DNA of 64,000 nucleotides from Negaprion brevirostris (lineage: Eukaryota), in assembly GCA_030324005.1 (NCBI GenBank), contig JARDVH010000042.1, positions 82,908,845 through 82,972,844 of the forward strand, read 5' to 3'. Numbering within the stretch: position 1 is the stretch's first letter; each line of letters begins with the position of its first letter. The translations under genes were made by a program, and so were the position numbers. The notes below the pieces were generated by a model that saw nothing but the letters and a program-made list of their open reading frames with translations, was not told the origin of the DNA and ran no database searches. Positions 652 through 27,800 of the stretch are shown piece after piece.

Positions 652-823
652 GGGAAGAGCCCTATTTAATTTTCACTAATCGTCATGACATCAGGAAAAT
701 TGGATTGCATCACATGGAATACACTCAGATAATTGATCAGCTGAGAAATGCTGTAGCACTTGATGCTGACATTGCAGCACAGAAAATCTTCTGGGCTGAC
801 CTGGGCCATCATGCAATTTTTAG
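652..823 (+). CDS. M1 propeller exon 1
   Basis: cctgcag|GGGAAGAG...TTTTAG|gtaaga; 172 nt; [19 protein letters not shown]...FWADL. Confidence 0.93.
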
Positions 824-3800
824 GTAAGATTTCTGAAATTCCATTATGTAATGACTTATTTGAGAATTTTCAATTCAAGATCTGTCTCTCTGCGTTGAGC
901 CACTTGAATAAATGTTGATAGATCAACTAACACTGGCTGGCTTTGCCTCTCCTGAATTGGATTCTTCCAGATTGCAGCCCTGCCTGGATGTAGACTTCAG
1001 TAAGAAGTCTCAACACCAGGTTAGAGTCCAACAGGTTTAACTGGTAGCAAAAGGCATTTGCTACCAAATAAACCTGTTGGACTTTAACCTGGTATTGAGA
1101 CTTCTTGCTGTTTACCCCAGTCCAATGCTGGCATCTCCATCATGGATATAGAACTTCCAGGGATTGGTATTCTAATTGAGCTAGAAAAAGTTTGTCACAT
1201 GTAGGCTTACATTAATACTGCAATCAAGTTACTGCTCCAGCACCTAACTGGGGTACACTGAGGGAGAATTGAGCATGGCCAATGCATCTAACCAAGTCTT
1301 TGAGGGAGGGGGTGGAGAAAGAAAGCACCTGATGGGTCAATGTGCAGAGTCTGCAAGGGCTTCCAAGATAGGAATGGAACCTGAATCCCAGAAGCAGCAG
1401 TGCTAGCTGCTGAGTTACTCAAGTAGACCTGAGGTGGGTTGACTCTAGCACAGGTTAAAAGCCTGCCACTGTTCCAACCTGATTTTTGGATGGGAGAATT
1501 GCTTTTTGCTCAAAGGCATGGTATAAACTGAAATTTATATGGTAATTGATTTATGGTGCAACATTAAGATCTGAGATTGATAGAGCCTAAGAAGCAATTC
1601 ATTCAGCCACCATTCAATATGCAGGAGAAGGTGATAGTGATCGAAAGGATGGGGTCTCCATTTTTTAACTTGGAAGGGAAGTGAAAATATAAGGCTGAAG
1701 GCTATAACTCTTGTAGAGTCACAAACTGAAATCATTAACTTCTTTTGAACTAGATGCAGGGCAAATGAATTTAAAATTGCTCTCAATCAAAATGCCAAGT
1801 GCAACATAGGGAGAATTAGAATTTGAACTTGTTAAATTGAGGTTTAAGAACTGATGTATGGAGAATCTTAATGCTATTTGCTCCAGAGATTCCTTTTGTG
1901 AATTGTAAATGGAGTCCAAAACCATATGACTGAATCAAGTGTCAGAAACCCAGACTGGTAACAACTAGAGGTTGGACTTCTCTAGTGAACTTAACCCAAA
2001 GTGTTCTCATCATTCAACAACCTTTTTTCATGAAACAAAAATGCTGTTGTTTAAAATCAAATTATTTTCATGACTCAAATTGAATGCTGTACATGGTAAC
2101 ACTGCATTGAAGACAATTCCTGGCAATGGAGAGCTCTTCCTGCTTCTGTTATAGTTTTTGCCTCCATCCAGTTGGTCTGATACAAATTCCAGCTGCCTTA
2201 AGTGATGACAACATGCCAGAAATGGACTGCTAATGAGTCTGCAAGAAATGATTTGTTCCCTTTTGAACAGGAGCAAGCCTGTGCAGGGGGCTACTCCTTG
2301 GATGAAAGCAAGTGGAAACTGATTTCTGGCCACCACTCAGCTGCCATTGTTTTTCCCCCACCCTCCTTTCTGTCCCACTAAAGCTGTGAAACCCAAAGTA
2401 TTTTAAATCACTTGAATGCAAGTATCATGCCAAGTGAAATACAAACATTAGATTGTCACCTTGTTCTGTTTTGCTGCTCTCATTCCTAATTTACAAGATA
2501 TTGGTTGAGGAGAAAGGATTTAAACTAGACCTCTTACCAAAATAAAACCTGTGCATTACCCTTTAAATACTTTAATTGTTACAGTCTGACAAGTATCAAA
2601 CTTTGGAGCTAAACAGTGTTCCAACCAACAATGTGCAATTGCTAACTGGGGGTTGCACAAATGTGAACTTCAATCCTGAATTTCTAGGTTTTCAATTTGA
2701 AGAATGTTTTATCCAGGTTTTGTATTTACTACTGTGATTTCATTTTGCAGTAAATCAATAGATAACCAAAGTGGTGCAATGGAGATTGCCAGAGTCATCA
2801 ATGATGCACGTCTTCCTTTGGGAATTGCAGTTGATTGGATCCACAAGAACATTTATTGGGCAGATGCAGGCCTTAAAATTCTTTCAGTGAGCAACTTTGA
2901 TGGAACCAAAAGGAAGATCCTCTTTGATACCAATCTAAAGGAACCAGGATCTATAGCTGCTGATCCACTAACTGGGTACTAAAGAATTTATAACTTGTCG
3001 TCGTCGTCATCATCAGGGTATCAGATGGAAAGTGTTTGGCAGTAATTCATACCAAGTTGATTGGCTTGACAAAGTGGCCAATTAACTAGTAATGCTAGCC
3101 ATGAGTTTAAATCATAAGTCATTTTGATTTATTCAATTGTCTGTAACTAAGCATGACCTGTGGATATGGAGGTAGCATGGTCAGATTATTCATAGTTTAA
3201 CTTTAATTTGCTACAATTCAATTTGAAGTTTTGTCTTTTGCATCTTTTTAATGGCACACTTGAATATTATCCAAACTCTGGAAAATAGGGGGCTCTTGTA
3301 TCTATGTTGAACTTTGAGGTTATGTTGTGGCTGTCAAACTGAATCCAGTAAAATGTAACTTTGACAATGCCAGTAGATACTATCATTTTCACCCAGTGAA
3401 GCATTTGATTCAAAAGTTCTCTTCTGACTCTTTTTCTGACTCTTTTTCTGCTTTGGATTATAAGGTTTATATACTGGTCAGACTGGGGTGAGCCTGCAAA
3501 GATTGAAAAAGCAGGCATGAATGGTGCTGACCGCCAGCTTTTTGTTAGCAGAGAGATTTATTGGCCAAATGGCATTACACTTGGTAAGTAAACTGAAACC
3601 TGCTTTGCAGCATTCATTATCAGGGTCTTGCTTAACTCCATACATCAAATCTGTTCACAGATCTTGTGAAAAGCCGCCTCTATTGGGTTGATTCAAAACT
3701 GCACATGCTGTCGAGCATTGATCTAAATGGTCAGGATAGAAGAACCATATTGCAGTCTGAAGAATTTCTTGTCCATCCTCTTGCTGTGTCCATCTTTGAG

Positions 3801-6800
3801 GTAAGAGGCATTGCCAGAACTTTTAATTACTGTAAGTGGAGCTAGAGTTGAATTAAGCAGCACAAGCTTGTAGGCTCACTTAACCCAGTTAGTGCTATTT
3901 ATGTATTGAGTTCAAAGTCTTAAATGGTGTATTTGCAAGCAAGGGAGTGATATGCCCCCCCCCTCAGATCAGCTAATAGCTAGATACTGGATAAGACTCA
4001 ATTATTCTTTAAACAACCAAAAGATGTTGGCTTACTGTTGGAGGGATATGTGAGAAGCAAATGTTTCCTCCTATTGTAGGAAAGTAACTGATCTACTCCA
4101 GTTTTGTGACCTAGTGTGCAGAATTAGCATCAGCTAACAAGCATTTTTTTGTTATCCAGGTTACGGGTGTTAACTAAAATATCAAATCCAAAAATAACTG
4201 GTGATAGTAAGGGATTCAATTGTGGGGCAGAAGTTTAAGGGGAAAGTACCTTAAGTCAATGTAATTTGTAACTTGATTTTGATATTTGTGGACTTGAGTA
4301 TTTTTGTTTGGAAGTCCTTTTTGTGTTTTCTGTATTTTTGCTTGTATACATCAAGTCTTGCATCTAAAAATGTCAGTTGAAGTATGCATTTTGTACAAAT
4401 CAAGGTATACTTGCACTGGCATCAGAATTCAAGATTTTGGGTAATATCTAATTTGACTGTTTTAGGATCGTATCTTTTGGATTGATGGTGAGGAAGAAAT
4501 CATTTATAGTGCTAATAAGTTCACAGGGGCCAATGTGGTGACATTAGTCTCCCATCTTGACGAACCTCATGATATGATTGCTTATCACAAGTTAACACAG
4601 CCATCAGGTAGGACATTTTGATTCAAGGGTGAGACTTGCCATTCTCATGAGCTGCACAAGAATCAGCTAGTCAAAATTAACTCAAATCAATTTGGAAAAT
4701 GAAATATCATAGAATCCCTTCAGTGCAGAAGGGGGTCATTTGGCCCATCAAGCCTGCATGAACAGCAATTCCACATAGGCTGTATTCCCATGAATTTACA
4801 TTGCTAATCCCCTGACTAAGGGGCAATTTAGCACAGCTGGCCAACCAATCTCACCTGCACATTTTGTGTGGGAGGAAACCCATGCAGTTATGGGAAGAAT
4901 GTGCAACTGCCTGGAGTTGGCACAAAGCTGGAATTGAACTCAGGTCCCTAGAGCTGAGACAGCAGTACTAACTACTGTGCCAGTGTTGCCTTAAAATCAT
5001 CATCCCCTTTTGTGTTTAAAATTTTAAGCTATTCCAAGCAGTAAATCTTGTGCTGCAATAATCTTAGTTTTATAACTAGCAATCTGACAAGAGATTGTAC
5101 TTCTATTGGCTGATTGCTGTAATTGTACAGTATCCTTGTCACCCTATGGAAACCAATTTGTTCTTTGACAAGCTGACTGATGTAACATTGTATATCACAA
5201 ATCACTAATAACAAACTTTTTGTAGTAAATCAAAATTCTGAATTGGCAAGCTGTGTGGCAGAACTAATCTTGAATGATTTGATTACATTTTTCCCCAGTG
5301 GTGATTTTCTTAAATCTTCAACAGGCAAAAATAGGTGCAGTGAGAGTTTGAATGGAGGCTGTGAATACATGTGTCTTCCTGCTCCTCGCATAACTGTGAA
5401 TTCAGTAACACATACTTGTGTATGTCCAGCTGGCTTTGAACTGAACAGAGATGGAAAGCGGTGTACAGAAAGTAAGAACAATTTTAGCTTGTTCACATAT
5501 TAACATTGAATGTTATAGCCTGGAATTTAGTCACAATCTAGGGGAAAGGTATTAGAAATTGAGCAACACTATATTTACATTTCTGCCCAATTCACTTACA
5601 CAAAGCTCAAACGTAAAATAGTCTATGAATCATTAATTGACTACAAAAAAGCTTCTGCTTATGGGTCAAAATTGCTGCAATTGAAGTTGCCAATCTGGTC
5701 ACTGTATAAAGTACAATTCACAAAAATATTTAGAGTCTCAGTTGACCAGCTGTAAGTCATTAACAAATGAATTGCAACATAGATTCATGTGTGGCTAAAA
5801 TTCTCTCAAATAATGGTGAATGCCTACAAATGACTGCATTTGATAAACTTGCCTTGCTGACTTGTGGGCAGATATTGCTTTGCAAATTGAATTTAAGTTC
5901 AATGCTTTTTCACATACTACTTGAGCAAGATATTGCTCAATCATATTGGGCATCTAAGCTGGAAATCTAAAACGCCTTGACATCTGGAGTTGGAACAAAG
6001 TTCTGATGGACTTCTTCCTGAATTTCTAGGATCCCTTCTTTCTGTTTCTTGAGCCTGTCTCCAGCTATCATTTCTGAATTGGAGCTATAAACTTCCAAAG
6101 ACCTCTTGGAAATATTCCTTGTGCAGTATTTCCTGTCCCCAGTTTAAAATCAGTAAACTCTGCATTTTAAACTGGTGGGAATGCATAATCAAGAGATCCC
6201 CTGCCACAAAGGTTTGGACTGTTACTTAATAAATAAACACCTAAAAATTGCCATAATGTGAGGTGAATTGTGCAATTGAAGTTCAGCAGTTTTGGCATTG
6301 GATAGTAAATTATCTGCAGTATTCTATGATGTGCTGTTTTAACTTTAAATGCCCTAAATGTCATGGTTTTTTTTTCTTGCCAGTTCAAATTTGTAACTTG
6401 CAGGTTGATCTTTGTAGATGCTGGTCCACTTCTGTCTTAGTTGTCTGGCCTTGCTCTAGAGCAATGAAATTAATGCCTGGTAGGATGGCTTACCACTTGT
6501 TCAGCTACATGTGAAGTATATGGGTAACTGGTGCTTGTGGAACCAGAGGTAGAGTGCAACTGCATATGAATCTTTAGCAGCTTAAACCACTCTCACTATT
6601 TCTCAATAAATGTTCTGGTTAGTAATATGCAAGATCTTATTTTAATTGATCCTCCTTCCAAACAGTTAACACTGCAACCTGTGAAGCATCAGACTTTGTG
6701 TGCCACAATGGGCAGTGTATACCCAATAAGCTGAAGTGTAATGGTCATGCTGACTGTGAAGATGGATCTGATGAAAACCCAGAACTCTGCTGTAAGTATT

Positions 6801-9800
6801 TGCTATTGCATATAAGCAAACATTCAGTTTTAAATGTGTAAACAACATTTGAATTGGAAGTAATTTTTGTTTGTGGTTTAGGTAAATTAGTCTGCATGAT
6901 GGTTACTAAACCTCACTTAGCCTCTTCAATGGTTTTGAATACTAAATTAACACCTATATCTGATATTGTCAATACATGTGCTTTAGGGAATGGGTTATTA
7001 AGACTGACTCAGAATGGGAGTTGCTGCTTCTCTTTTTCTGGACATTACATGGGCATAAGGCTGATGGTTTTGACTTTTCCAGCAAATGGTTTATTGATCA
7101 GTAAATTTAAACTGACTGCAGTCTATTGCCTTTTTTCTTTTCCCCCACCCCCCNNNNNNNNNNGCTAGTCCCCTTATCGACAACGGTCCAGTTTTTATTC
7201 TAGACTTTTTGATCACAGATCTGATCTACTTGAAGACTAAAAGTAATAGGACTATTCTGGATTGAACAATATTGCTGGCAAGGGCCGTTTTGCTGAAACT
7301 GTCTTGTATTCAGTGAGACAGTTGCTAAATTTCAGATTCTCTTTATAATGCAGTGATAGCTGGCTCCATAATTGAGGTTTTGCCAGAGGATTTCACAATC
7401 TGGTAATTTGAAAGTTGAATACATTTCCTTAGATGTAAACTGATACCACTCATTTACTGCAAATNNNNNNNNNNNNNNNNNNNNNNNNNNNNNNNNNNNN
7501 NNNNNNNNNNNNNNNNNNNNNNNNNNNNNNNNNNNNNNNNNNNNNNNNNNNNNNNNNNNNNNNNTTATAATGCAGTGATAGCTGGCTCCATAATTGAGGT
7601 TTTGCCAGAGGATTTCACAATCTGGTAATTCAAAAGTTGAAAGTTGAATACATTTCCTTAGATGTAAACTGATACCACTCATTTACTGCAAATGTGTTTA
7701 ACAGTTGGTGGCACGGTAGCACAGTGGTGAGCACTGCTGCTTCACAGCTCCAGGGACCTGGGTTTGATTCCTGGTTCGGGTCACTTTGTGGAGTTTGCAT
7801 ATTCTCATGTCTGTGTGGGTTTCCTCTCAGTCCAAAGATGTGCAGTTTAGGTTGATTGGCCATGCTAAAATTGCCCCCATGTCCTAAATTGTGGTAGATT
7901 AGCAGGTAAAATATGTAGGGTAGGGCCTGGATGGGATTGTGGTTGGTGTAGATTTGATGGGCTGAATGGCCTCTTCACTGTAGGGTTTCTATGATTTCTA
8001 TGAATTTTCTTATTTTGCAAGTATAGATGGGTTGAGTACAGTCTATTAAATCAACCAGCCACCCCCACAATTTGGCAATGTCATGTGTGCATTTCAGTAT
8101 CACTACAATGCTGAGGGTCCCTACCCCAATGATTTGATCAAATAAAAACACATTTTTTAGCTCATGGGCAGAGTAACAAAATCCAAAATATCTACTAAAA
8201 TTAAATGTGAATCTGCAATTGGGCAGCACTCACCAGTTGAATGAAGTGTGCTGGAAGTGACTTACACGATTCAATCCCTTAAATGTCAAGTGAGACATTC
8301 CAGATCCAAGCTGACCAAACAGGCAAGCTTCCCACCTTGGGCTTGATCTACATGCTCCAAGCTATTGGAGTAGGCATTGCACTTCCAAGGTTTGGTGGTT
8401 TTCTTGCATCTTAGCAAAGGCCAAGATGCTGTGCTTTTTTTAAAGGCTTCATTTGAAGCCTTAAATGCAGGATGTCAATACTATGCTTGATCTTGGCCAA
8501 AAGGCTGGAAGTGATATGCTCATGTGCAGGGACCTGTTGTGTAAACAAGAGAAATATGTTCAGGCCTGCACTTCAATTATTGGTGCTTTTGTGGCAATAC
8601 TTCATCAGAATTGGACTTGGCAACCATTCAACACTTACTGTGGCATAAATTGTCAAATTAAATGATTGCTTTTGCAATATAATTCTCTTCAGCAGTATTC
8701 AAGTTTTGTACTACCAAACTAAATTTAGGTTGACATTTGAATACTTTCCTTTTTGAAAGGAATCAATGCTATATTTAAATTTTCAGGGCAGGAAGCACTT
8801 AGCGATGTGATACCACACCTGAATGCATCAGTGCTTGCTTTTTCTGGCACATTCTGTGAAACTAGTGGGTAATTACTCCAAGCTCATGCTAATGATTTTA
8901 TCCTTTTTGAATAGGATGTTAAATGTCCTGTCTGACCTTGCCCAGTGGGTTGATACCATGGCACTCTAGGCAAGCAAGAGTTGTTCCCATCTCCTAGCTG
9001 ATATTGATATCTCAATCTGCACTGCAGTAAAATTCTGGTCATTATGTTGCTGTTTTTGGCAGCTTGTACAGTAGTGATTACATAGGCATTTGTGTAGATC
9101 TTTGCACAATGTGGAGTCCATCTTTTTTCCTTCCCCTTTTTGAGGGTTGTTGCAATATCCTTGTGAAGGAATGGGGTCCTATTATCTCTGGGTTAACTTC
9201 TGGCATTTGNNNNNNNNNNNNNNNNNNNNNNNNNNNNNNNNNNNNNNNNNNNNNNNNNNNNNNNNNNNNNNNNNNNNTTTGCTTTGTCCTACTGTTGGTA
9301 GAAACCCTGACTGACTTCCTACTTGGATAAAAGTCTTGTAGAGTTTAATATGCTTCCTCTTTTAGACAAGAGGACCTGTGCTTCTGATGAAATGAGCTGT
9401 GGCCCTGGGTTACCATGTATTCCCATCTTTTGGAAGTGTGATGGAGTAGAGGATTGTACTACTGGCAAAGATGAGGATGGTTGTGGTAAGTAGATGCTGG
9501 ATCATTAAGTTTTGAAAGCTCTTAATCTGTGCTATAGAATTGTTCACTATGCTGCTACCTTAATGCCAACCTCACATTTTGGAACTTTAATTTTGCCACT
9601 AACCTTCAGCTTGGACCCTCCTGAATTCACTAGTTAATCTGTGCCTTTTTATTAATGATTTTAAATCTATCTTTGTTCATCCTGTGAATAGCCCTGTCTT
9701 AGTCTCACCCCTCAATATTCTGGTGCCTCTGTCTATTTCTAGAATAGTGTCCAGAATGAATGCAATATCCTGGCTTAATTTTTAGTGAATTATCCTTCAT

Positions 9801-12800
9801 TGAAATTCTTGCCTTTTAAAATTGTCACCTGTTGGCTCTAGGTTTTACAAAATATTTACATTTGTTTGCAATAAAACTGTTTTTCAGATGTTGTTTGCAG
9901 TGCAGAAGAGTTTACCTGTGCAAATGGCAGATGCATTTCCAAGGCATTTGTTTGCAATAGTGATGATGATTGTGGTGATGGAAGTGATGAGAAAAACTGT
10001 GCACCAATTTTGTGTGGCCCACATGAGTTTCAGTGTAATAATTCTGAATGCATCCCTTTGGGCTGGGTCTGTGACACTAACATTGACTGTACTGACCAAT
10101 CTGATGAATCTCCAGAACGTTGTGGGCATGTGCTTCCTTCTGTGACTTGTTTGCCTACTGAAAGGCCATGTGATTCTGGTGAATGCATCCATGCTCGATG
10201 GTACTGTGATGGTGATACTGACTGTAAAGATGGAAGTGATGAAGCCAACTGCCGTAAGTGGTCTAACTTTTTTAGTGCCACATTGGGGTAGCAGATTTGA
10301 GTGCTGTGAAATAGGTAACTTTTAGTGAGCTGGCTCCAAGAATGCCACTGACATTTTCACTGATTTAGGGTGACAACTGAAGACAATGCCAAAGGTCTGT
10401 GTAAAGAACTGAACTTGGATAACATTTGGCAAGCTAAGTGCCAAATCAGTCATCTCTGTATACTTGTAGTATGTGGATGACAAGTATCAACACATTTTTC
10501 ATAGATCCTGGAAAAATTATCAGCTTTCTCTCCATTAAAATATTGTCATACTGTTGCCATCCATCTGTTCAAGTTACTGTCTCTTCACCCAAAGTTCATC
10601 AATTGTAGAATAAAATTAAGTTGCATATTGGAGAATTTTGAACATCTTTAGTGAGGTAGTCAAATAGAAATACTTGACCTGAAAGCTTAGCTTAACTTTA
10701 TCTAGCTGTGATTTTTTTTAGGATCTGCAGGTTCTGCTTTTTCCACTTGTGGAACAAGTTCAGTCTTACCATAATTGTTCTCAACACCCAATCATGACCT
10801 ACAGTGCTATAGGTGTCTGAAGCATGCAGTATAGCATTGCATGTTTGGGCAAATGCCAATCCAGCTCCAGTAAGTTCAGTTGAGTAAAATTTCAATCCAT
10901 AGCAAATCCTTGCAGATGAGTCCCCTCCAAAGTGTACTTTGGGTTGTTCCAGGAAATGTCTTTGTCTTTCTCTAAAATGCATTAGAGCTGTGTGGGCAGA
11001 AGTTGTTTCTCTACACAGCTTTTTGAATAGTCAGATGTGTCCAGGTAATAGTTTCTCACGTTCCAAATTCATCAGCTACCTTGGGCAGATGGTTCCAGGT
11101 TGTGAATGCTTGTATGACAATGTTAAATATTGAAATTCTCCACCATATGGAATCCCCTCCTGGAAGCTGTTACTCTTGAGTAACTTTTTTTACAGTTTTT
11201 GCCTGATGCAAAAGCTTCAGGGTATTCCAGTAATCATGAACTCCATCTTGAGTCATACAGGTATACAGTGTAGAAACAGCACTTTTTTTAATCCAACTAG
11301 TCATGCTGACCAGGTCTCCTAAACTGAACTATTCCCATTTGCCCCATATCCCTCCTAAACCTTCCTTATCCATGTACCTGTCCAAATGTCTTGTGATTTG
11401 GAATTGTACCTGCCTCTACCACCACCTCTAGCAGCTTATTCCATACATGCACGACCCTCAGGTCCCTCTTTTAAATTCCCCCCCCCTCACCTTTTAAAAC
11501 CTATGCCCTCTTGTTTTGGACCCTGGGGAAAAGAACATTCAAGAAACATTTTGGCCCAGGAGCATTTGGATTCACCAAAACTAACTGACCTAGTGAATGA
11601 CTCTTTCCAATTGAATTTCCACATCAACACTAGATATAAATATCTGACAGTGCATGCACACTGAAGCCCCTCCTTCCCCAACTTACAAAAAGTTGTGGCT
11701 TCCACTTTGCAGAGATGGTTTTGTGAAATGGAGTATAGCACAGGAACAGGTCCTTCAACCCTGTGCCAATCATGCCTGTCTAAACTAAAGTAGTATGCAC
11801 TTATGGAGTCTGTATCCTTTTCATTATCATTTTGTTCACATATTCATCTAGTTTCCCTTTTTTAAATGCTGCTATTGTAGCTGCTGCCACCATTCCCCAG
11901 GCAGCACATTCACCTGTGTGCATGTTTTTTTTGAAAAAAACTTGTCTCTCATTTCTAAACTTTCCCCATGCACCTTTAAACATATGTCTGCAGTACTTGG
12001 TTTTTTTTTTTAACCCTAGGAAACAGCATCTGACTATCCATTCAAACCTTGCTGGCCTCCACCAGGTCACCCCTCATAGCTAATACCCTTTAGACCAGAC
12101 AACAACCTCTATCCTCCCCAGCATCCATATCCTTTCAGTAGTGTGGTGACCAGAATTGTGTGCACATTCTAAATGAAGTTTTTAACTTGTTCTGTGCAGC
12201 TGCAGCATGACCTACCAATTTTTATATTCAATGCCCTGACTGATGAAGGCAAGCATGTCATGTTTCTTGACTACCTTATCCACCTGCATTGCCACTTTGA
12301 TCAGTGGACATTGTACACCCAGATTTGCCTGTCAATATTCCAAAGGATTCTATCATTACTGTATAATTCCTACATGCATTGGATTTTCCAAAATGCATTA
12401 TTCAGATTAAACTCATTTCTCCAACTGGTCCATATCTTACTGAATCCTCTTCACTATTTGCAATATCACCAATTTTTGTGTTTGCAAACTTGCTAATCAA
12501 ATCAGCTTCTGTATCCATATTGCCAGCTCTGATCCTATGTAACTTCACCTTTTTTGTACCTTGTCAAAGGCTTTACTGAAGTCGATGTTTACTACATCCA
12601 CTGCCTTTTGTCATCTCTCATTTATCATCTTTATTACATTCTCAAAACTCATTCAGGTTAGTGAGGCACAACCTCCCCTCACAAACATGTTTATTACCTG
12701 AGTCCATTGTTTCCAAATGTGAGTAAATCCTGTCCTTGAGAATTTTTTCCAATTTTCCCTACCACTGACTTAAGGCTTACTGACCTAAACTTCCCAGATT

Positions 12801-15800
12801 ATCCTGCTGCCCTTAAACAATGGAACAACATTGGCTGCAAGTGACATCCTGGACAGCCAGTGAGGAAACAGATTTCTGTCAAGGGCCCAGCAGTTTCTGC
12901 CCTTGCCTCCCTCAGTATTCTGGGGTAGATCCTGTTGGGCCCTGGGGACTTATCTACTTTAATGCTTTAAGACACCCCAAAATATTTTTATTTATAGGTA
13001 TGACCTGAAATATCTACACACCCTACCCAAGGCTCCTCACCCATCAAATACCCCTCTTGGTGAATACCAAGGCAAAGTATTCATTTAGAATCTCGTCCAT
13101 TTCCTTGTTCCATGTATAGATTCCCTCTATCCTTGAGTGGACCAGTCTTTTCTCTAACTACCCTCCATCCAAAGGACCACTCTTGTCCTTATCCACGAGC
13201 ACCTTTTTTTAACTTATGGAATTATGATCACTATTCCCAAAAAGCACTCATATCTTCAATCACCTGGCTGATTGGTTTCTGCAGAAACCAATGGCTAGAA
13301 TAATTAATTGAATTGACTAGCAAATGTGTAAATATAAACTGAATATAGCTGGTTGGGTAGGGGGGAGAAATTCCTTTTTTCCATCTCCTAAGCCTCTTTC
13401 TACCAGGCATGCTGCCATTGTGTTATAATGTAGAGCACTTGAGGACATGACATACCATAACATACTGAGTTGGATCTAATCTACAATTACCCTTTAGTAA
13501 TGGCTGCTCTGGAACTTGCTGTTGTCTACACTGTAAATGATGTAACCATTTTTCAAAAAAATACCTGTCCTACCAAGTATTATAGATGGGCAAATATCAA
13601 GGGTTGATCAATGATCCTGAACTGCAATTGCTGCTTTTCTGATGAACCAGAACCCAACTCTATATTGGATGATGCCCTGACACTTGTGATGGAAATTTGG
13701 TGTTTACAAATCCTGATATTTTTATTTTTAAATATGCTTGCATGCTGAATACTTTTGCATGTGCAAGTGTATGCACTTTCAGTTGTTTAGTATTTGGTCT
13801 TGATGCAAAGTAGATGGTGTACAATGAGCAAAATGCTCAACTTGTGATTTAACTTTTTAATAGCAGTATTTTCTAATAGTCATGTGCATTCCTTTAAAAG
13901 TTCAGTTCCACCTTCTATTTTAATTTTCTCATGCAACAAATCCAATGGTATTAATGGTGAGGTGTTGGTAAGCTATTTCAAGAGGATAGCTCAACTTGCT
14001 CATTTCAGTCATCTTTTAGGAGAAGGAGCCATGACTTTTCACTCAGCCTATCCTGAGATTTCCAAGGTGATTTTTCTAGAGGTCTATAACACGCAGGGCA
14101 TAAATAGTCAGCATCTTTTCCTAAAGGTAGGAGAGCCTAAATTATGGACATAAGTTTAAGGGTCCAGAGGAGCAATTTTCATTAGGTGGTGAGTGTCTGA
14201 AATGAGCTGCCAGAGGCAGGTATAATTCTTTTTAAAGCATTTGGATAGTTACATGGGTAAGAGGGATGTGGGTAACTAGCTTAGTGGTTTTAAAAACTGG
14301 GTGGCATGGACAAGTTGGCCCAATGTGTGTATGTCAAGCTCTTCAGTAAATCAAATGTCATCTGATTTTTCAGCTCCTCATCCAACATGTCCACCACATT
14401 ACTTTCCATGTGGTAATGGTAGTTGCATTCCTGCAGACAAGCAATGCAATGGGTTTAAAGACTGCACTGATGGCAGTGATGAGTTGAACTGTAAGAATGG
14501 TAAGTGTCTGTCCACTGGATAAGAGTTAAGTTGCCATTTCCAAGTCACAAACCTGACTTTCTCTGTCCCTAGAATGTACAGGGCCAAATAACTTCAAATG
14601 TCAAAGTGGAGAATGCATAGCTAAAGACCAAGTATGTGATCGGCATCAGGATTGCAAGGACTGGAGTGATGAGCCCCTCAAATATTGTCGTAAGTGTTTT
14701 TATAGCTTTTAATTTGAAAACTAATTTACTCTATTCATCCCAACCATGGTGCTTAAATCTTCCTCTTTCTCCCCCTGCACTGATGAAAGTGTTCCTCTGT
14801 TGTCCAAATCAAGTTTATTCTGCACTTGTCTATACCATTCATCAGAGCATCACCTGGCAATGTATTTTCTTCACTGTGTCACTATCACCTTTTTTTATCC
14901 TTTGGCAATATCTGAAAATATGAAGAATTCACATTGCTGTCTTCCACCCTATCAAGCCCCTACCCTCCCCTTGACCTTGTAATACTCCATCTTGGTAGCT
15001 TTGACCACAACGTGTACTGGTTTAACTACTGTCCTAACATAATATTGCCTCAAGTTCACAACCTTTGCATTCTGTTCAGCCATAAGTAGAATTTCTGATT
15101 TTTGACATTCTTTCCACCACCTGAGCACTTGCTTGCCTTCAGCACTTAATCCTGTATGTCCCTAGTACAATCCATCAGCAGAGTCTTCTCTCTTGCCTTG
15201 TGACATTACAATGCTTGTTCCTCACTCTTGGCACATTCAAAACTCTGCAGCACCATCTTTTGTTCCTGTTCTCACTTATTTTGCATTTGACTTCCTGCTC
15301 CCAACAACAATTTTTGCCTTTTTATAGACTTTGACCCTCCATCATCCTTCCCTTTCTCTAATCTAATCCAGCTCTTTAAAAACAGAATTTTTACATTCCT
15401 GACTTGGTGCGAGCTATCATTTTTGGCAGTGTGGTTACAGCTATGTTAACTGATTTCCTTCCCTGACACCCCCCCACCCCCTCTGCATCAATACTTTTTT
15501 TGGCCTTTATACTATAGTTTAAACCAACTCTTGTCACTTGTCTTATTTTGTCTTATTCTTGCACCACTCCAAGACATGAAATCTTGTTCAATGTATGAAA
15601 TGAATTTTAACATTGACAAACTGGAGATGGTGTGGTTTAAATTATGAACTTCATTATACTGGAGAGTACATTGAGTTTCCACACAACCTAGATTATGGTA
15701 ATTGTTTGGAATGTCAGGACTTGACAAGTGCCATGAACTAAATTTAGATGCACATTTCACAATCCAGGCCATTTCAGACCCCACAAATTGTGTGGGGAGT

Positions 15801-18800
15801 TCCACAATTGGCATAACTTTTAATGTTGAAATGGAGAGTAATTTAACTAAGTTGGCCTGCTTATTACACTCAATTTCCCATGCTGTGAAGTTTAAGTGCC
15901 TTGATTAGAACTAAGCTTCACTTCATGTACTATCTCAGCTGGACTTGAAACCTAAAGTAATGCAGTCATAACATACTCATTCTCAATGAAATTTTCAAAC
16001 TCTTTGGAACCCAGAATTAGTTGCTATTGAGCAGTTTAAATATAGCTGGTCATATACTTAATTATCATTGTTATAAAAATCTTAATGTTCTGTTTGGGTA
16101 ACTTTTTTTTGTTTTACAACACTCCATTTTATATGAAACACATGGGTTTACATAAAATGTCCTTTTTTTTTTTGTAGCACTATATTTAAGCAGTCTGCCA
16201 ACGAATTCAGGACTAAAGATGTCCTGTTTTTCCCCCCCCCCCCCTCACAGAATCATTAAATCAAACTGCAAGTATTCTAGTTCCATATTTATAAAGGTTT
16301 CTCTCTACAGACCTAAACGAATGCTTAGTGAACAATGGAGGTTGTCCTCACATCTGCAGAGATCTTGTGATTGGTTATGAATGTGACTGTCCTGCTGGCT
16401 TTGAGTTGATTAATGGAACAACCTGTGAAGGTAAGTGACTTGCTGACATATAATCTGAGCAAAATCACTTTTTGTGGGGAGAGGATGAAGATGCTCTAAC
16501 TATCCCAATGCCAGGCAAAGGATTTACAACCATCTACATGTTTAGTGGTATTGCCATTGTTTTTTTTTTCATCTTCAACACCCAGACAGTCAACTGACCA
16601 CAAATGCTGTAGCAACTCAAGCAAGTTGAATGTAGGGATTCCATGGTCATTAATTTTAAGGCCTCCACTACACTTTGTATTTTTCTATAGTACACATTAG
16701 CTACTCAAGACCTCCTGGGCAATAGTTTGATTTTTCACTCCACTTGCTGGCATAGCACCTAGGTAATGTGCAAGTCAGAATTATACATGTACCTTCCCCC
16801 TTCACTGGGTTAAAACTGGCACTCCCTACCTAAACATGTTTTTGGGACTACTGTCACTTATGGGTTGCAGTGTTTCAAGAAGGCTGTGCACCAATATTTT
16901 TGTCAAAGGTGGCCGCATTTCAGGTATGTCCTGACAAGGTAGATTACAATTGCACTGATCTCTGGGTAAGCCTCCTGAAGATTGAGGTAGGGACAGTTGC
17001 TTTCTGGAACCATGTATGTATTGATTAGACTCTGATTTTTGAAACCAGCCCAGATTAACTAGTTGGAAGTCTGAGCAAAATTTCTGCCTCATTTGCCTAA
17101 ACTTGAGTATTTGAATTTTTTTATAGATATTGATGAATGTCAGGATCCTGGTGCCTGCAGTCAAATTTGCATTAATATAAACGGAAGCTTTGAATGTGCA
17201 TGCTTTGCAGGATATCGCATGGATGCCACTAATCATGTTTGCAAGGCAGTTGGAGGTAAATGGAACAAAAATGATTTCCCAGCTTGATGTTTAATTTGTT
17301 GAAATGTGGTGCAGCTTTCTTGTACTTGAGTAACTTGTGATATCCCAAGTGGAAATTTGAAGATCTTTGGAAGACCAGGGTAAAGAAATTATCAAAAGTA
17401 GCAAGCATGTTCTTTTTCAGTTTTGTTGCTGCACCTTGGATACATTGCCAAAAGTGGATGGTGAATCTTGCCTCCCTGATTTTGTATATCTTGGAAAAAT
17501 TTGTTATTTCCACTCCTAGCTTGAACACAAAGCTCACTACTACTCATTTTCAGTTAACTCATTGTTAATTTCAATATTAATACTAGACCAAGAAGCTGAG
17601 TATTTGGATCTGAGCCTGTTATTGACATGTGAAGGGTTTTGATAGTGTCATCTCTAATGTGCTTTGTCAACACTGACTTGCCCAGTGTTGCCATTTGGGA
17701 CATGCAGCCTTGGTAAAGCTAGATGGCACTGCATGGAATTTAATCTGAAATTCTGGTTGCCATGAATTTGGGGGCCTTGAGCTGTTTGAGTTAACTTCAG
17801 GCCCTAGATGTAACTGTCCTTAATATGGTCTATTGGGCTGTTTGCTGAGCAAGGAAATTTAGTACACTCTAAACTGTGTAAATACTATCTTTTCCTAGGC
17901 AAAGAGCCTTATTTGATCTTTACTAATCGTCATGACATCCGAAAACTAGGACTGCATCACCACGAGTACACCCAGGTAGCTGCACAGCTGAGAAATGCTG
18001 TTGCATTGGGTGCTGACATTGCTGAACAGAGAATCTTCTGGGCTGACTTGGGGCAGCAAGCAATTTTCAGGTAATGAATCAAGAAGCAATACTGGTGGTT
18101 ACAGTACTGAAACAATTTTTTTGCTAGATGGTACTGTTTTGAGTAAAATATTCTTAACAAAACAAAGCTGACTTTGTTTAACTGCATGAAGGTTTGTCTT
18201 GATCCCATAACTTCAGTTGGAACTAGTCACTGTTAATCTGACTGTCTATATCTGAACTTCAGCTACCCTTATTATAGTATGAATGTTGAAGAGGATTTGA
18301 TACATTTCAACTTCATGGCTTTGGTAGTGAGCATTTCCCAGCTTCTAAAGCTCACATTTAGGCTAGCTGATGTAACAATGGTATTCTTTTCTTTCCTTAG
18401 TATGTTCATGTATGAGAAGAAAAGTAAAACCAGTGTTTCTCAAGTTATTAAGGATGTTGCAATTCCTATGGGGATTGCAGTGGATTGGATCTACAAGCAT
18501 ATTTATTGGACAGATCGTGGTACTAAAACTATCTCTGTGGCTACGTTTAATGGAACTGAAAGAAAGATCCTCTTTGACACGGACTTGGGGGAACCAGCTT
18601 CTGTGGCAGTCAATCCACTAACTGGGTACTGAATTGTTTTTACCTGTCACTGAAGCCACTTGGCACTTGTAAAATACTTCTATAATGTTCAAATCTCTGG
18701 GTTTGTCTTGGGATGGTGAGTGAATTGGGTGTGAAATTGAGAAACTAATCTCTTGTGGAAAAACCAGGGGTGTGAGTGCTTTATATGCAAAAAAAAAAGT

Positions 18801-21800
18801 GCTTGGATCAACTGGATAATTCTCCTCCAGTTTTGAAGTGGAAATTGTTTTTTAGTAACTTCCCATTGATCAAAACTTGACAATACAGGAGGGAACAATA
18901 ACCTTGTTCCTTCAATGAAGGGGGAAAAGTGTAGCAGTCATCAGTGAAGTTTGAGATTTTGCAGGGGGGAAACAATTTGGATGACTATTCTCACTGGTGG
19001 GAGTGCTTTTTCCCCAAAACCCAGACCAGCTGAAGCAGGAGTTGCAAAATGTGCCTCAGTAGAAGGTGTGTTTTTCTGTTCTGCTTTGGAAGTTATTGAA
19101 ACCAACCGTACTAGCATTGGATGCCTGAGTGTTCAGTTCTCTAATATTTAATCTAATTTTCTGGAGTTTGTGATGCAGTGAGCCCTAGTGACCAGGTTGT
19201 GTGGGTGGGTGGTGACTTTGAAGGAGGAGAATAAATACCAAGGCTGGGTCTAGGAGTAGCCCCTAAACAAATACAAAGTTGCTGCCACTGTTTTGAGCTA
19301 ACTTTTTAAATGAGTGACCAGAATTGACCATACAGGGTGCTAGGCAATTATTAAATATTCAGATACAGGGGATTCTAGTGGATCCATGCAGCAAAATCCA
19401 ATAGTAAGCCTGAGAAGGTTCTAGATGAATACATGTGGTTTGAGTAGGAGCTGCTATTGGGTGAGAATGATTCATCCATTAAATGGAGCTGGAATTCTCC
19501 TGGGGGAATTGTCTTAGGTTTTTTTGGCTGAAATTGCTGCCACTTTGCCTGACAAGATCCTTGTATCTACTAATTTGAGATTTCTAATGGAATTGTCTGT
19601 TCTAGTTGAAACCCTATCTGGGTTAGGTTGGCAAATTCACTTGATTTGATCTCTAGGGGGTGTTCATAACAACACCCTCAGTTATACTTCTATGCTAGAG
19701 TATTTAAAATCCATTTGTGTTGAGATTCCTCTTGATGGCCTTTTGACTAATCCTGTCTCCATTGCTTTTCAAAGATTTATTTACTGGTCTGATCTGGGTG
19801 AACCAGCTGTGATAGAAAAAGCAGGAATGAATGGTGTCCATAGGCAACTTCTGGTTACCAGAGAGATCCAGTCACCAAATGGTATTGCACTTGGTAAGTA
19901 GGCAAGTCAATTTTCCCTCTTTTTCCCTTTTTATTGAGCTTGGTTAATAATTCCAATTTTCTTCACAGATCTTGTGAAGAACCAACTCTATTGGGTTGAC
20001 TCAAAACTGCACACATTGTCCAGTGTAGACTTAAATGGACAAGACAGAAGAACAGTCCTTTATTCACATGAATTCCTTGCTCATCCTTGTGCTGTTTCTG
20101 TATTTGAGGTAATGTCATTTAACAATAGCTATATTTTGCTTTGAGTGCACAGTTGGGTTTTTGAGGATATCTACAATTCAGTGATTTATTTTGAATCATT
20201 ACTTGAGAGCAGGTTTGTCTGAATCTCATGGTTATCACAACCCAGTCATATTAGGAAAATTTATCCTGGGCTAAAGTAATTAGCAAGCTGTTCAATATGT
20301 ACCTAGGCAAGAGTCATTCCTTGCTATGCTGCCTTAAACCAAAAGACACTGCTGCAGTGGTATTTTGCATGTTCTATATTTTTGGTCCATTCCCAAGAGC
20401 CCCTAATTTTTGTGGCCTGGATAAGGGTGCCAGTAGGAGCCTGTACCCTGACTGGCTGAGAACCCAGACTGTTGCAAAATGTGGGAGGAGAAGACTGTCT
20501 AACTGACAGCTTTATGATGTAATCTAATTGTGTAATGTTTTGTCAATGGCTTAATTTTTTTGTTAATTTGCCAAGTGCTTGGAGCTTCTGTTTTCAGTAC
20601 TTTAAAAAAAACTTGATAGTCCTAGGGTTGTAGCACCTACAATTGAAAAGAAAACTATGAATTGAGGCTGGAGCCAGAATTGAGTTTGACTTTCACTTTG
20701 TACTGAGACTGGTCTATTCTTGATTGCAAGCTGAGTGGTGCACACTTTGCTATATTATCTAAAGCCATGCTCCAATTGGGCACAATTCAAATTAAGGTGT
20801 ACTTTTTTTTTTTACTATAGCTGACCAATGGTTTAGTAGCAATATTTCTGATTATCCAACATATGGGTGGTGAAATGTTGACAATAGGAGAATTTTCCTA
20901 AAGGACTGAACAGTGGATCAGAATAAATATGATTTAGTATCTTGCTCTGAAATATAAGTTTCAGTACATTGAAGTATCTTGGGCAGAGATGCTCAGGGTT
21001 GAAAGATTGGTAGCACTCTGCTAGCCAGGCTCCTTGTGGGGAGAGGAGAGATGGGATTTATGACCTACATTATAAGCAAGAGATATGAGCAGAATACCAG
21101 ATGTGTAACTCAAATTTTGTTTTTGTTATCTCAACTAATGAGCCACTTTGTCTTTAGGACTTTTTATTGTAGTAGGCACAAGGCATCTTGCAAAGAATGA
21201 CAAGTTATTTCCTGATTGTGTTCCCATTGTTTCAGGATCATGTATTCTGGTNNNNNNNNNNNNNNNNNNNNNNNNNNNNNNNNNNNNNNNNNNNNNNNNN
21301 NNNNNNNNNNNNNNNNNNNNNNNNNNNNNNNNNNNNNNNNNNNNNNNNNNNNNNNNNNNNNNNNNNNNNNNNNNCTGAAACATCTACTTTTAATGTTATT
21401 ACTGGCTTTGCATTTACTCTGTAGGGTAGATGTGCCTAACTGCTAGCACGTGGATTTCCAATAGTTGGAGGTCAGTAAATTCCATTTGTTATAGAATAGT
21501 AATAATTCATCTATAGGTATAGTATGAATATTTTTGCCTTCACAGCAATCATTTTGCCTGCATTTGGATAAGACATTGTGGATATTTTGTTTGTGCACAA
21601 GTCCATGATTTCAATGACTACTGTGGAATTTTGAATGTTTCAAAGTAAATTTGGGTTTTCATTTGATCTTGGGCCACTGGCCTTGATTTGTTTCCAGTAC
21701 TGACAAATTTATTTGGTCTCAACAGGCATAAACTGGTGCAATGAGAAGTTGAAAAACGGAGGCTGTGAATACCTGTGTCTCCCTAGCCCACAGATTAATC

Positions 21801-24800
21801 AGCTGCCAAAATATACTTGTGTGTGTCCATCTGGAATCAAGATGAAGAATGAACACTGTGAATTTGGTAAATATTGGTTTTGGGGTTGGGGTTGCTAAGT
21901 GAGAATGTAACATGTTTAGAGTGTGATTTTGATTTTACAAAATAGATCAAAATCTTCAGACTAGGCAATCACCTTTGCATGAAGGATAGAAAAATTACCC
22001 AAGGCCTTGAGATTGCANNNNNNNNNNAATCTGACTACACACTATCAATCACTAATCTGCATAAAGCCATAGTTGGAATGTCACTATCCTTGCTTTGTGC
22101 ATTAGTTCCAGTAGTTTGTTTTTGTGGTATTTGCTTTTGGTTGCTACTGGTAGTTGATCCAATAGCTAAGTTCAAGTGGGGTGATGAAGTCTGTCTATCT
22201 GAATAGTTGGACATATATGGGAGGCCTCTAGATCTGATATGCATGTCATTTAGAGTAAAAATGCATATTAAGCAAATAGTAAATGCCCTTTTGTAGACAA
22301 GGGGAAGCAGTACACAAGTTCCCCCAAAGGGTTAACTATTTTTTTTGAGAGGGGATAGTATAAAGAAGAAATGTGAAAGGATGCCCAATAAAGTATTCTG
22401 GGAGCACTTATGTTAAGAAAAGTGGAAATAGATGGGCCTGGAATCCCACAGTTACAGAATCAAGGAGTGAGTTGTACATTGTGTGCCAACCCAGAAGTGG
22501 GTGGAGTGCTTTGTATTGGTCAAAGCCAGTATAAGTCAGCAAGAGCTCTCAGACAATAGATCATGTGACAAATCATTTGAAGTTCAGGCTTTATGTAATC
22601 CAGCCCAAATTGCTGCAATCTTAACAGCTAACCCACTGGGAGCAATTGTTTAGTTCATCAGTATTTACCCATCCTTGTCACAATCTGTAGTGGTTTCACC
22701 AATTTGCCTGGTACTTAAAGACATCATGACTGGACATGTTCATTACCCTTTTTTTAAATGAATTTTTCCAGGGTGCACTAAGGAAATAACTGACTCTTCC
22801 CTTTTAGACTCCACTGGTTGCCATTCAGCATCATGGCTAAATGGAGGGGTGAGGGTTCTTGCATACTAAATGTTCAACTTGGCCATGTGTCTTGAATTAG
22901 CAGTANNNNNNNNNNNNNNNNNNNNNNNNNNNNNNNNNNNNNNNNNNNNNNNNNNNNNNNNNNNNNNNNNNNNNNNNNNNNNNNNNNGCGATGCTGACTG
23001 CACAGATGGATCTGATGAAGCCCCAGATGCCTGTTCTAAATATCTTATGTTGGCAGTTCAACTGCAAAGGTCAATCACCTTTCTTGGGCAGAAAATACTA
23101 GTACAGCTTCCACAACTAGTTTACTTTGCATTTGACTGGGACTTTAACTTGATCTGCTAATCTCTTATGAAAGTGCCATCGGCAGTACACTGCCAAATCT
23201 GTTGGCTGCACTGAATTTTACCTATTGGACTCCTAACTCTTCTTGGTCAAACAGTTGAATTGTTAGCACACTTGTAATTTAATGGGCAGAAAGGTGGATG
23301 CAAACATTAAAATTTATTTTGTTTGTAAATTACCTCACTAGATCAGGTGAAAAAAGGTGGTAATGAGGAATCGATGGGAGCTGAAACTGGACAGCATATA
23401 AAATGCAAACTGATTCACTACCTAATTTTAACTAGTAGCAAATCAACAGCCATGGTGCTGGCCTAAAGTGTTAATGTTGCATGACCAAAGTTAGTTCTGG
23501 TATAAATGGATGGGTATGTTGTGCTCTAGCACAAGTCTGGGTCTATACATGCTTCTGCATACTCAGATGTGGTGTCTTTGACTACCTTGGAGCAAATCCT
23601 TTATACTGTAGTTAATCTGTTTGAGGAATGAAATTATGGAATAGCTGTTTATTTTAAAACCTTCTATTTCAGACACCAGAATCTGTCATATGAATGAAAT
23701 CAGCTGTGGCCCTGGATCTCTTCAGTGTATTCCTGCAAATTGGAAATGTGATGGAGAAAAGGACTGTACAAGTGGCAGTGATGAAGAGAACTGTGGTAGG
23801 TTTATAATGGCAAGATTTAAACTTGGTCTGCAAGCAGTCAAATAGTCCAGGGAAGGTGGCAAAGAGAATGCAATGAAGTTGCTGTGAAAATTCCCCCTAG
23901 CCACTACACTGTGTACTTGAACAGGCACCACTGAGGGAGAATTTAGCATGGCCAATGTCAGTCGATATGGTTTGAATTTTAATTGAAGGTAGGCTTGAAC
24001 TCAATTGTAGCTCAGGCTAGTGCTTGGTTCTGGCAATGAAAATGCCAATCTTTGAGAAGTTAGTTGGTAAATTTTGATGCTAGTCATTTTGTCAAATGCT
24101 CAGACTTTGCAGGTAAACACGTCAATACTAATCTATATCTCCTGCTGTCAGATCCTCTTGGAAAAGCAGTGTCTGTTGGCTGAAATAATTCATTATCTGA
24201 AATAAGAGCAATTTTTTTTTTACTCCAACTAAATCCATTTTTGGTTGATTGGTGTTCTTCTACCACTGGAGAATCCTCCTGGTCTGGCAGCATCTGAAGA
24301 AACAGTTCCAGTCAGAACTAGTGAAATGTCACAATTGAAACACACTCTGGAGAGAAGCACAGACCTGCTGACATTCTGATATTTTGCTTTTGAATTCATG
24401 ATGAACTTTTGGATGCATTATGGAATGAGTGATAAACATTAAACTAACACTATATACAAATAACATTTTTCAGGCAATCTTACTTGCAGTCCCAGGGAGT
24501 TTACTTGCTCCAGTGGCAATTGTGTTTCCAGAGCATTTCTCTGCAATGGGGAAGATGACTGCAGTGATGGAAGTGATGAAAGGGACTGTGCTCCATCTAT
24601 TTGTCACCCACATGAGTTCCAGTGCAATAATTCTCAGTGCATTCCCTTGGATTGGGTGTGTGACAGCAATGCTGATTGTGCTGATCAGTCTGATGAATCT
24701 CCAGACCGCTGTGGACACATCAGTCTTCCTCCTGTGACTTGTGCACCTGGTGATGTTCCATGTAATTCTGGTGAATGCATTCACAGTAAATGGCACTGTG

Positions 24801-27800
24801 ATGGTGATGTAGACTGTAAAGATGGGAGTGATGAAGTTAATTGTCGTAAGTAATCTGTTTTTATGCTATGCACCTCTTGTATAAATTTCAGTTGTGATGA
24901 GCCCTCTAATATGGTGAAGGAAAATGTAACCCTCTCCCAGCAGGAGTACTTGGAATAGATTTACACTGGATGTTTCAAATGAGTATTCTACATTTTTAGG
25001 ATCCTTTCTCATTAGAACAGGTTTAAAAGGCACCCAATACTTCACTGCTTTTTAAAATTTGTTTGTGACAAATAGGCTTGCATTAACACTGCAATGAAGT
25101 TACTGTGAAAATCCCCTAGTTGCCACAGTCTGGTGCCTGTTTGGATACACTCCAGGAGAACTTGGCATGACCAATGCACCTAAAGCTGCACATCTTTCAG
25201 ACCTGGGAGGAAACCCACACAGACATGGGAAGAATGTGCAAACTCCAATGACCTAAGCCAGGAAGCAAACCCTGGTCCCTAATGCTGAGGCAGCAGTGTT
25301 AACCACTGCCACTATGCTGCCCCCTATCACAAGTTCTGTATGTGTCATGATTTGAGGGCAATCCAGAACTGTTTGTGTCCACTAAGCTTGTCACATGCTT
25401 AGTTTTTAAATGTGATATTGTCAATGCCAAGTTGAATGTTTTGGAACAGCAATGCAATTTCAAGTGAAGCTTCAACGTAAGTATATTTATAACAAGTTTA
25501 AATATTCCAATGCTATGAATTAAACTTTTGGTCACCATCTTTGATTTCAGCTCCTCGCAAATGTAATCCAGGTTATTTCAAATGTGGTGATGGTGCCTGT
25601 ATCCCTGGTAATAAAATATGTAATGGAATTTGGGACTGTGCTAATGGCAGTGATGAAGCTGTCTGCAAAATTGGTAGGTTTGTAATTCACCAAAATAACT
25701 TCAAATGTTTTGGGTCACTTCAGAGTTTTTACTTTGTTCTCTTCTACAATTAGAATGTACAGGACTTGATGATTTCAGATGTCAAAGTGGGGAATGCATC
25801 AATGTGTCTCTAGTGTGTAATCACCATCCAGATTGCATGGATAAGAGTGACGAACCCCTGAAAGGATGCTGTAAGTTTAAATTATAGGCATGATTTGGCT
25901 TCATGTTCCAATTTAATGAATCTGATGCTGCTAACTCATAAAACTGTCTTGTGATGTAGACCATGTTCCTTCCCTTTTGAATGCAAAATCTTGCAAGTTC
26001 TTTAACTGTCAAATGTGCAGCCACTGATGTAGAAATGTTGCTGTTCAAGAGCTTTGTATAACTTAGCTGCAATGTGATGACAATGATCAAAATCTGGGGG
26101 ATAAGTGTCAGTCCTGACAGTAAGATTTTGCTCTGGAATAGTGTCTTGGGATCTTTGTACCCACAAAACAGATGGCCCTCCCCAAGTTCTAATGATGTAA
26201 AAAGATCCAATTTCATCTTGAAGCTTAAACTGGCACTTCCCACATAAAAATTGATTTTGTGAATAGTTGGCACCAAGTAATGATTGCAGCATTCCACTAG
26301 TCAGTGTCAACCTTGTGGCTTATTTCCACTTTGTTTTAAATGTCCTCATCCATGCCAGTACATTATCTACCTTCACCCCCTCCCCATGCCAAGTTTATTT
26401 GCTAATTTCCTGTGTGGCCCTTGTGCCAAAGTGCCTCAATCCATATTTGCAAACATCCACTTCTTTAATCTGTTCTGCTAGTTACATTCTCAAATTCTGA
26501 ACTAGTTTATTGAGTCTTTCCCTTTTTGACTAATCAAGTGTCTTGTTGTCATATCCCTTTTTAATCACATCCTTTTAATAGATTTTGGCATTTCCCCAAG
26601 TCAGATTATCTTTCTGTATTTTGCCCCACCTTTTTTATAGTGGGATTACATTTAAGAACATAAGAAATAGGAGCAGGAGTAGGCCATCTAGCCCCTTGAG
26701 CCTGCCCTGCCATTCAATAAGATCATGNNNNNNNNNNNNNNNNNNNNNNNNNNNNNNNNNNNNNNNNNNNNNNNNNNNNNNNNNNNNNNNNNNNNNNNNN
26801 NNNNNNNNNNNNNNNNNNNNNNNNNNNAACCCTTAATCCCCTTGCCTATCAAAAACCTATCAACACACCTCAAAAAATTTAGTGAGGCAGTCTCCACCAC
26901 TTCAACAGGCAGAGAGTTCCAGAGATTCACCACCCTTTTGAGTGAAGTTCCTCCTCAACTCCATTCTAAACTGCCCCTCCCTTATCTTGAGGCTGTGCCC
27001 CCTAGTCCTACTGTCCTTTCTGAGCAGGAAGAGCCTCTCCCACCTCCTCATTTGTTGCCTTCCAATCTCTAGAAATTATTCTAGAGCACTAACATAGCCA
27101 ACTTTTTTGGCATTTTGGAATGTAGATCAAGTCCAGGGGATTTATTGACTTTCAGTCCTGTCTTCTCCCATATGATTTTCACATCAATTTTTTTTTTGTC
27201 CATTTGGCTGTCTAGTATTTGAGGGAGGCTTTTTTCATCGAGGATCAAGGAGCCATGTGGCCACCTCATTTGTATGTTAAATCCACAAGCTTTGAGTGTT
27301 TATCCTTTTTTGAATTTATTCATTGACCACAGACCTATTGCATTCTTCCCTATTTACCCATTTATATCACCTCTGCTAGATAGTTGTGACTTGTTAAAGG
27401 TTATTTATTAGTTACATGTAAGGATTAAATTAACATTGCAATGAAGATTTTGTGAAATTCCCCTAGACACCAAAGTCCAGTGCCTGTTCAGGTCAATGCA
27501 CTTAACAAGTATGCCTTTTCAGAATGGGGGGAGAAGCTGGTACACCCCCACGCTGACACTATGCAAACTCCACATACAGGAACCCAAGCTGAGAATTGAA
27601 CTCTGGTCCCTGGTGCTGTGAAACAGCAATGCTAGCTCCTGCACTGCCCACATGTAAATTAAATGCCAAGATACATCCCTCAAACTCCAGCTTGCTAATT
27701 CTTCTAGGCAGCTTTCAATTTTGACCATTCATCTTGGACTGTTCAATTTCCATGGCTCAGAATATCCTTCTGCTCCTGGATTAACTTTGGGCATTTGCTT

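Follow-up and report, generated by a model that had tools for sequence, protein, structure and literature searches.

A stretch of Negaprion brevirostris DNA read as the body of the five-cassette receptor gene VLDLRc3, likely spliced into one chain

Introduction

The window, the whole stretch of 64,000 nucleotides of Negaprion brevirostris DNA analysed here, is read as the body of the five-cassette shark gene VLDLRc3. It is likely spliced to a single membrane receptor of ~3,450 residues that is predicted to bring yolk protein into oocytes, and we put the probability of this reading at about 0.87. The five-cassette architecture is already known, being that of the VLDLRc3 of Ohishi et al. 2023 (PMC10015161). 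In the sections of that paper used here, catshark VLDLRc3 has five units and is expressed in the ovary only, and the supplement holds a chimaera VLDLRc3, curated from the genome, which by eye has five propellers (the first partial), one TM segment and a FENPVF tail. The main text of the paper has no match for NPxY, cytoplasmic, intron or splic; nor does it contain the correspondence of the cassette to VLDLR exons 3–15, the short FENPxF tail or the apparent decay of the first LA exon of cassette 3, all described below. Beyond that paper, a literature search that left subscription journals mostly outside returned a one-line mention of these genes (bioRxiv 10.1101/2025.06.08.657570).

Results

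The window corresponds to C42:82908845–82972844 in a genome of 2.69 Gb, and was studied together with 60 kb upstream and 210 kb downstream, a region of 334 kb with 296,545 called bases. Searches with seed exons (tblastn) found LA, EGF-A, EGF-B, YWTD-propeller and EGF-C exons recurring in the window, all on the + strand, and the proteins it matches best are VLDLR-like ones from Chondrichthyes. Nine strong copies of the three-LA exon fall in a span of ~245 kb on C42. Across the 334 kb, nine ectodomain cassettes, resolving as blocks of five, three and one, stand against three signal exons and three TM/tail exons, the former placed by tblastn at −10722, 95215 and 228884 and the latter at 70167, 137962 and 243804 (extended window coordinates). 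The gene of the window is thus the first of three in tandem at the VLDLR locus, with VLDLRc2 and VLDLRc1 following it. VLDLRc2 is found 95–138 kb past the window start on the same strand, with three cassettes of 8+6+7 LA modules and a FENPVF tail, and VLDLRc1 229–244 kb past it, also on the same strand, with one cassette and a FDNPVY tail. A PUM3-type CPL domain occurs ~43 kb beyond VLDLRc1, in keeping with the VLDLR–PUM3 synteny of a VLDLR locus.

Matches to the three-LA exon also occur at C179:7382192–7478648 (53%) and C150:40654563 (50%), the former ~95 kb from a QLQ-domain gene; by synteny these are presumably LDLR and LRP8. QLQ matches (SMARCA2-type synteny) fall on contigs other than C42.

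From the splice candidates of the individual exons we assembled and translated a model of 67 exons, with one acceptor set at 62818. It has no stops in 3,403 residues, and its 64 readable donors comprise 59 GT, 4 GC and 1 CT (63/64 GT or GC). There are 1,747 N in the window, where the EGF-B exon of cassette 1 lies inside a gap and several other exons lie partly in gaps. LA modules number 6+7+6(7)+7+7 over the five cassettes. The features are as follows, in window coordinates unless stated otherwise.

C42:82898122–82898188, ~10.7 kb upstream of the window: signal exon, followed by the six LA modules and EGF-A of cassette 1
652–5471, + strand: 3′ half of cassette 1, five YWTD-propeller exons and EGF-C (5325–5471), with Pfam EGF and LDLR-B
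5472–6665, + strand: junction intron 1, 1194 bp, no N, GT-AG, phase 1/1
6666–21866, + strand: cassette 2, seven LA (first LA exon 6666–6791), EGF-A, EGF-B, propeller and EGF-C (21726–21866)
21867–22900, + strand: junction intron 2, 1034 bp, 10 N, GT-AG, phase 1/1
22901–23035, + strand: first LA exon of cassette 3, CT donor, 82 N inside, probably decaying
23673–32342, + strand: cassette 3, six intact LA, EGF-A, EGF-B, propeller and EGF-C (32196–32342)
32343–33177, + strand: junction intron 3, 835 bp with a gap of 100 N at 32428–32527 (true size not fixed), GT-AG, phase 1/1
33178–49530, + strand: cassette 4, seven LA, EGF-A, EGF-B, propeller and EGF-C (49381–49530)
49531–51858, + strand: junction intron 4, 2328 bp, no N, GT-AG, phase 1/1
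51859–63843, + strand: cassette 5, seven LA, EGF-A, EGF-B and the four propeller exons inside the window
64918 and 67704–67853 (extended coordinates), + strand: last propeller exon and EGF-C of cassette 5, past the window
69590–69655, 69889–69969 and 70165–70268 (extended coordinates), + strand: stalk, TM and TM/tail exons, the sole such set of the gene

Pfam matches fall on both sides of junction intron 1, with EGF at 5327–5470 and LA (PF00057) at 6668–6790. The last propeller exon of cassette 2 is mostly in an N gap, for which contigs of related organisms supply 136 letters, consistent with an intact exon. The TM/tail exon ends in FENPVF, three residues and a stop. Four GC-AG introns are present in the gene, at 31426, 40735 and 60628 of the window and at the cassette-1 EGF-A exon upstream. 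A direct repeat (7343–7464 and 7565–7693, 94.6% identical) flanks a 100-N gap and is probably an assembly overlap. Intronic open frames at 28679–29101 and ~54750–55460 resemble what we take to be fragments of a LINE reverse transcriptase and an LTR-retrotransposon pol.

By exon mapping the VLDLR extracellular domain is therefore present five times, with, gaps aside, a single signal peptide and a single TM segment plus tail for all five cassettes. The gene is orthologous to catshark VLDLRc3 and not to c2 or c1, as judged from its global identity to S. torazame 'VLDLR c3' (84.3% to BDQ29913.1) and from cassettes that tree with the same-position c3 cassettes. A protein search at 3,326–5,000 aa gave three clusters far above LRP2, with single-chain models of 3,423–3,491 aa from five shark species. 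Of the other four, M. asterias has a global identity of 92.3% (3037/3290) with the window model, S. canicula 83.2%, R. typus 77.3% and C. plagiosum 75.6%, and junction 1 is spliced oddly in two of the five full-length models. In six species or more the annotated gene is broken up or cut short, and the breaks frequently coincide with cassette junctions: it is split in H. ocellatum (686+2078+848 aa), C. punctatum (647+1425) and H. perlo (1900+1065), and short in P. japonicus (1427 aa), thorny skate (2154 aa) and little skate (2765 aa). No internal piece has a signal or a TM, and the breaks fall in different places from one species to the next, as would be expected if annotation had failed. In whale shark, each of four isoform models covers the full length, with differences of 1–2 residues where exons meet in cassettes 1, 4 and 5; under RefSeq practice as we understand it, such isoforms suggest that RNA supports the gene along its length. 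The models from the rays Hypanus, Hemitrygon, Mobula, Narcine and Pristis are all c2-type, with no c3-type among the best 120 matches listed.

Catshark primers from Table S5 of PMC10015161 could be mapped with 1–3 mismatches, to c2 cassette 1 and to the span from the last c2 cassette to the 3′ end. The c3 primers in that table lie in the last propeller exon (65039) and in the TM exon (70168), and no primer pair in it crosses a cassette junction.

An earlier note on this DNA had placed the inter-cassette introns between 5471/6666, 21866/22901, 32342/33178 and 49530/51859, and exon mapping reproduced both these borders and the sizes in the list above. It had also described every EGF-C donor and next LA acceptor as phase 1, which is the case at 4/4 junctions, with 4/4 GT and 4/4 AG. 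The single-cassette VLDLRc1 next door has phase 1 at the same boundaries, an inheritance from ordinary VLDLR; the phase is compatible with joining, but cannot tell one gene from a cluster. The reported lack of signal, stalk, TM or tail exons in the four introns was borne out by a tblastn search over the 334 kb with 21 signal, stalk, TM and tail peptides taken from this locus and six other proteins, the best match in these introns having E≥1.2. The same search detected no such exon anywhere in the window while recovering all three true sets. The absence of a tail exon from the junction introns stands on this homology search, as the scan for FDNPVY behind the original statement is blind to the real tail of the gene, FENPVF. 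When a motif scan of the FDNPVY type was tried for tails it found VLDLRc1 only, missing c2 and c3, and homology search was used instead. A genome-wide search with the c3 tail returned itself and one weak match (E=0.1), and is insensitive, the c1 and c2 tails being missed.

Junction intron 2 contains one hydrophobic open stretch (21946–22206, hydropathy 2.77) with an internal ATG. These introns would be expected to hold ~0.11 such stretches, this one has no Pfam match, and of eight codons that differ in related organisms six encode another residue (F to S and L to P among them); we read the stretch as due to chance. It also shares no homology with the signal or TM exons of VLDLR.

The first LA exon of cassette 3 appears decayed in the window gene, in contrast to catshark, whale shark, bamboo sharks and Heptranchias, where it is intact. 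Contigs of two related organisms put 68 letters in the gap of this exon, which makes it 119 nt long rather than 123 (among the differences listed); over the junction-2 region the contigs of related organisms are unspliced and DNA-like. The M. asterias model lacks the first Cys of this module, which is intact in the models of five other species that reach the exon after the cassette-2 EGF-C. Skipping from 22901–23035 to 23673 keeps the frame, and the same joint is seen in c2 cassette 2 and in a chimaera model. The exon has therefore probably lost its donor and is skipped in frame; given the CT donor and the part lost to N, junction 2 probably lands at 23673, the acceptor that the earlier note had offered as an alternative. 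A search of the genome for a second copy of the cassette-3 LA region gave one match, the region itself.

Exons were numbered after the 19-exon VLDLRc1 of the same genome. Each of cassettes 2–5 runs from an exon of the exon-3 (LA2) type to exon 15 (EGF-C), while in cassette 1 the signal exon is joined straight to an exon-4 type, as it is in whale shark. Intron positions, including those of introns of 68–84 nt, are retained in every cassette, from which it follows that the copies are duplications at the DNA level. Cassettes of different position are 56–66% identical in protein, compared with 70–91% for cassettes of the same position in other sharks. Trees were built with FastTree from 63 cassette cores and with IQ-TREE from 40 (23 rows of near-redundant species omitted, bootstrap of 200 iterations at most). 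The position clades have support of 100 and include skate copies for cassettes 2–5, so the array is older than the shark–skate split. Support along the backbone is 17–75, and the order of the cassette duplications is not fixed by it. The cassettes of Callorhinchus milii fall outside the shark position clades and two of its c2 cassettes pair (support 93), a hint of a separate duplication or of gene conversion in holocephalans.

We infer that VLDLR exons 3–15 were duplicated in tandem, with breakpoints in phase-1 introns 2 and 15, before the shark–skate split, and that the five-cassette array has been frozen since. Unequal crossing-over, proposed earlier as the means by which a phase-1 cassette could be amplified, is most likely the process responsible. 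It is plausible in that the introns and orientation of VLDLR have been kept, but no intron similarity is left that could demonstrate an exchange: equivalent introns of different cassettes share none, six non-exonic self-matches include no pair that is equivalent by coordinates, and the intron DNA common to cassettes consists of repeats only.

Discussion

A single chain of ~3,450 residues is the best and likely reading of this gene, on the basis of its exon structure and of orthologue models. The earlier proposal of one continuous polypeptide is supported by the one signal exon and one stalk/TM/tail set for five cassettes, by single-chain models in five species and by the published VLDLRc3. The accompanying statement that this is not a tandem gene cluster is correct for the five cassettes within VLDLRc3, but not at the higher level, where the locus is itself a cluster of c3, c2 and c1.

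One gene could still give mixed products by in-frame skipping of cassettes or by intronic polyadenylation after EGF-C, with the five-cassette chain possibly a minor one. Phase 1 is shared by the stalk acceptor and by every EGF-C donor and LA acceptor, two bamboo-shark annotations stop just after the cassette-1 EGF-C, and AATAAA is present in junction introns 1, 2 and 4. This motif is, however, expected by chance in AT-rich introns, the whale-shark isoforms that differ by 1–2 residues are all full length, and the annotation breaks fall at different junctions in different species; we consider such a mixture unlikely. Far less probable is a tandem cluster of single-cassette genes, each with its own transcription from internal promoters and with signal and anchor exons that escaped recognition. 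The split annotations, the hydrophobic stretch in junction 2 and the unsized gap in junction 3 would be compatible with it, but the junction introns have no exon homologous to a signal, TM or tail exon in a search that recovered all three true sets, and their CpG observed/expected is 0.00–0.21 against 0.92 at the real signal exon. The internal annotated pieces lack signal and TM, and the hydrophobic stretch varies in relatives as neutral DNA does.

A gappy assembly, with the N noted above, and one exon with a broken donor might also be taken as signs of an assembly artefact or of a recent segmental duplication of pseudogene fragments. Cassettes only 56–66% identical in protein, with nothing but repeats in common in their introns, no stops, and the same cassette order in other sharks and in skates speak against this, and position-specific orthology refutes it, leaving it practically no weight.

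Compared with its relatives, the single-chain VLDLRc3 proposed here is closest to that of the catshark (BDQ29913.1; PMC10015161). The two have in common five units, one TM, a tandem arrangement with VLDLRc2 (three units) and VLDLRc1 (one) and orthology position by position, and differ at the species level only, namely in the first LA exon of cassette 3. VLDLRc2 has the same cassettes and short FENPxF tail, and its last cassette groups with c3 cassette 5 (support 75 / 0.91), but it differs in its number of cassettes, in its LA numbers and in having kept LA1. Ordinary VLDLR/LR8, represented by VLDLRc1, has the same exon order, intron phases and domain types, and the window cassettes are 60–67% identical to catshark c1; it differs in having one cassette with a single cluster of eight LA modules, and a FDNPVY tail with a 36-residue distal part where the window gene has FENPVF and a stop three residues on.

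LRP1, LRP2 (megalin) and the insect vitellogenin receptors also carry several LA clusters split by EGF-propeller units in one chain, and RefSeq labels these shark proteins 'LRP1/2-like'. The gene is not an LRP1 or LRP2 orthologue, matches to LRP1/2 being 33–41% against 70–76% for c3 proteins (the trees were built without LRP1/2). VLDLRc3 differs from the LRP1/LRP2 and insect receptors in being a strict repeat of one cluster and one propeller derived from VLDLR, which makes the likeness to LRP1/LRP2 convergent.

The tail was surveyed in 45 proteins, of which 11 lack the motif, nearly all of them truncated models. FENPxF is found in 24/24 c2/c3 models bearing the motif, with the stop 3–9 residues on, and FDNPVY plus 36 residues in 10/10 single-cassette VLDLRs. 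An LDLR with FDNPVF has an internalisation index of 0.95 (Table I of PMC2133019). For Jedi-1, a change to NPXF abolished engulfment, as given in the part of PMC4055271 used here, and the choice of adaptor may thus differ for a FENPxF tail. LA1 is missing from every c3 cassette. In a fish receptor, LA1–3 are reported to be indispensable for the binding of vitellogenin (Li et al. 2003, as cited in PMC11772764), and the loss of LA1 would count against a vitellogenin-binding role. In the LA modules a W or F occupies the ligand-contact position, and this is retained in 22/33 readable modules.

Family knowledge and the catshark expression pattern suggest how splicing, ligand binding and release would operate. 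One mRNA would encode a type I receptor whose five clusters hold ~33 LA modules between them. The 6–7 LA modules of each cassette would bind vitellogenin or lipoprotein, five clusters giving high capacity and avidity, so that vitellogenin could be captured multivalently at the oocyte surface. The short FENPVF tail would then drive clathrin uptake. Acid-triggered release by the EGF-propeller unit is the mechanism of the LDLR family, and at low endosomal pH each cluster's own unit would release its ligand. Binding and uptake of vitellogenin by VLDLRc3 are predicted from orthology and the published ovary expression. Because any EGF-C donor would keep the reading frame on joining any LA exon or the single stalk exon, splicing might even tune valency, one gene providing receptors of 1 to 5 cassettes during vitellogenesis; a megalin-sized receptor would have been rebuilt from VLDLR, with a short FENPxF tail that keeps uptake and drops the VLDLR signalling tail. 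This we regard as a doubtful extension.

With the single-chain VLDLRc3 read from this window, another shark confirms the multiplication of a whole ectodomain in a vertebrate lipoprotein receptor. The multiplication may relate to the very yolky eggs of sharks, a suggestion made in PMC10015161, and VLDLRc3 shows a route from a one-cluster receptor to the multi-cluster giants of the LDLR family.
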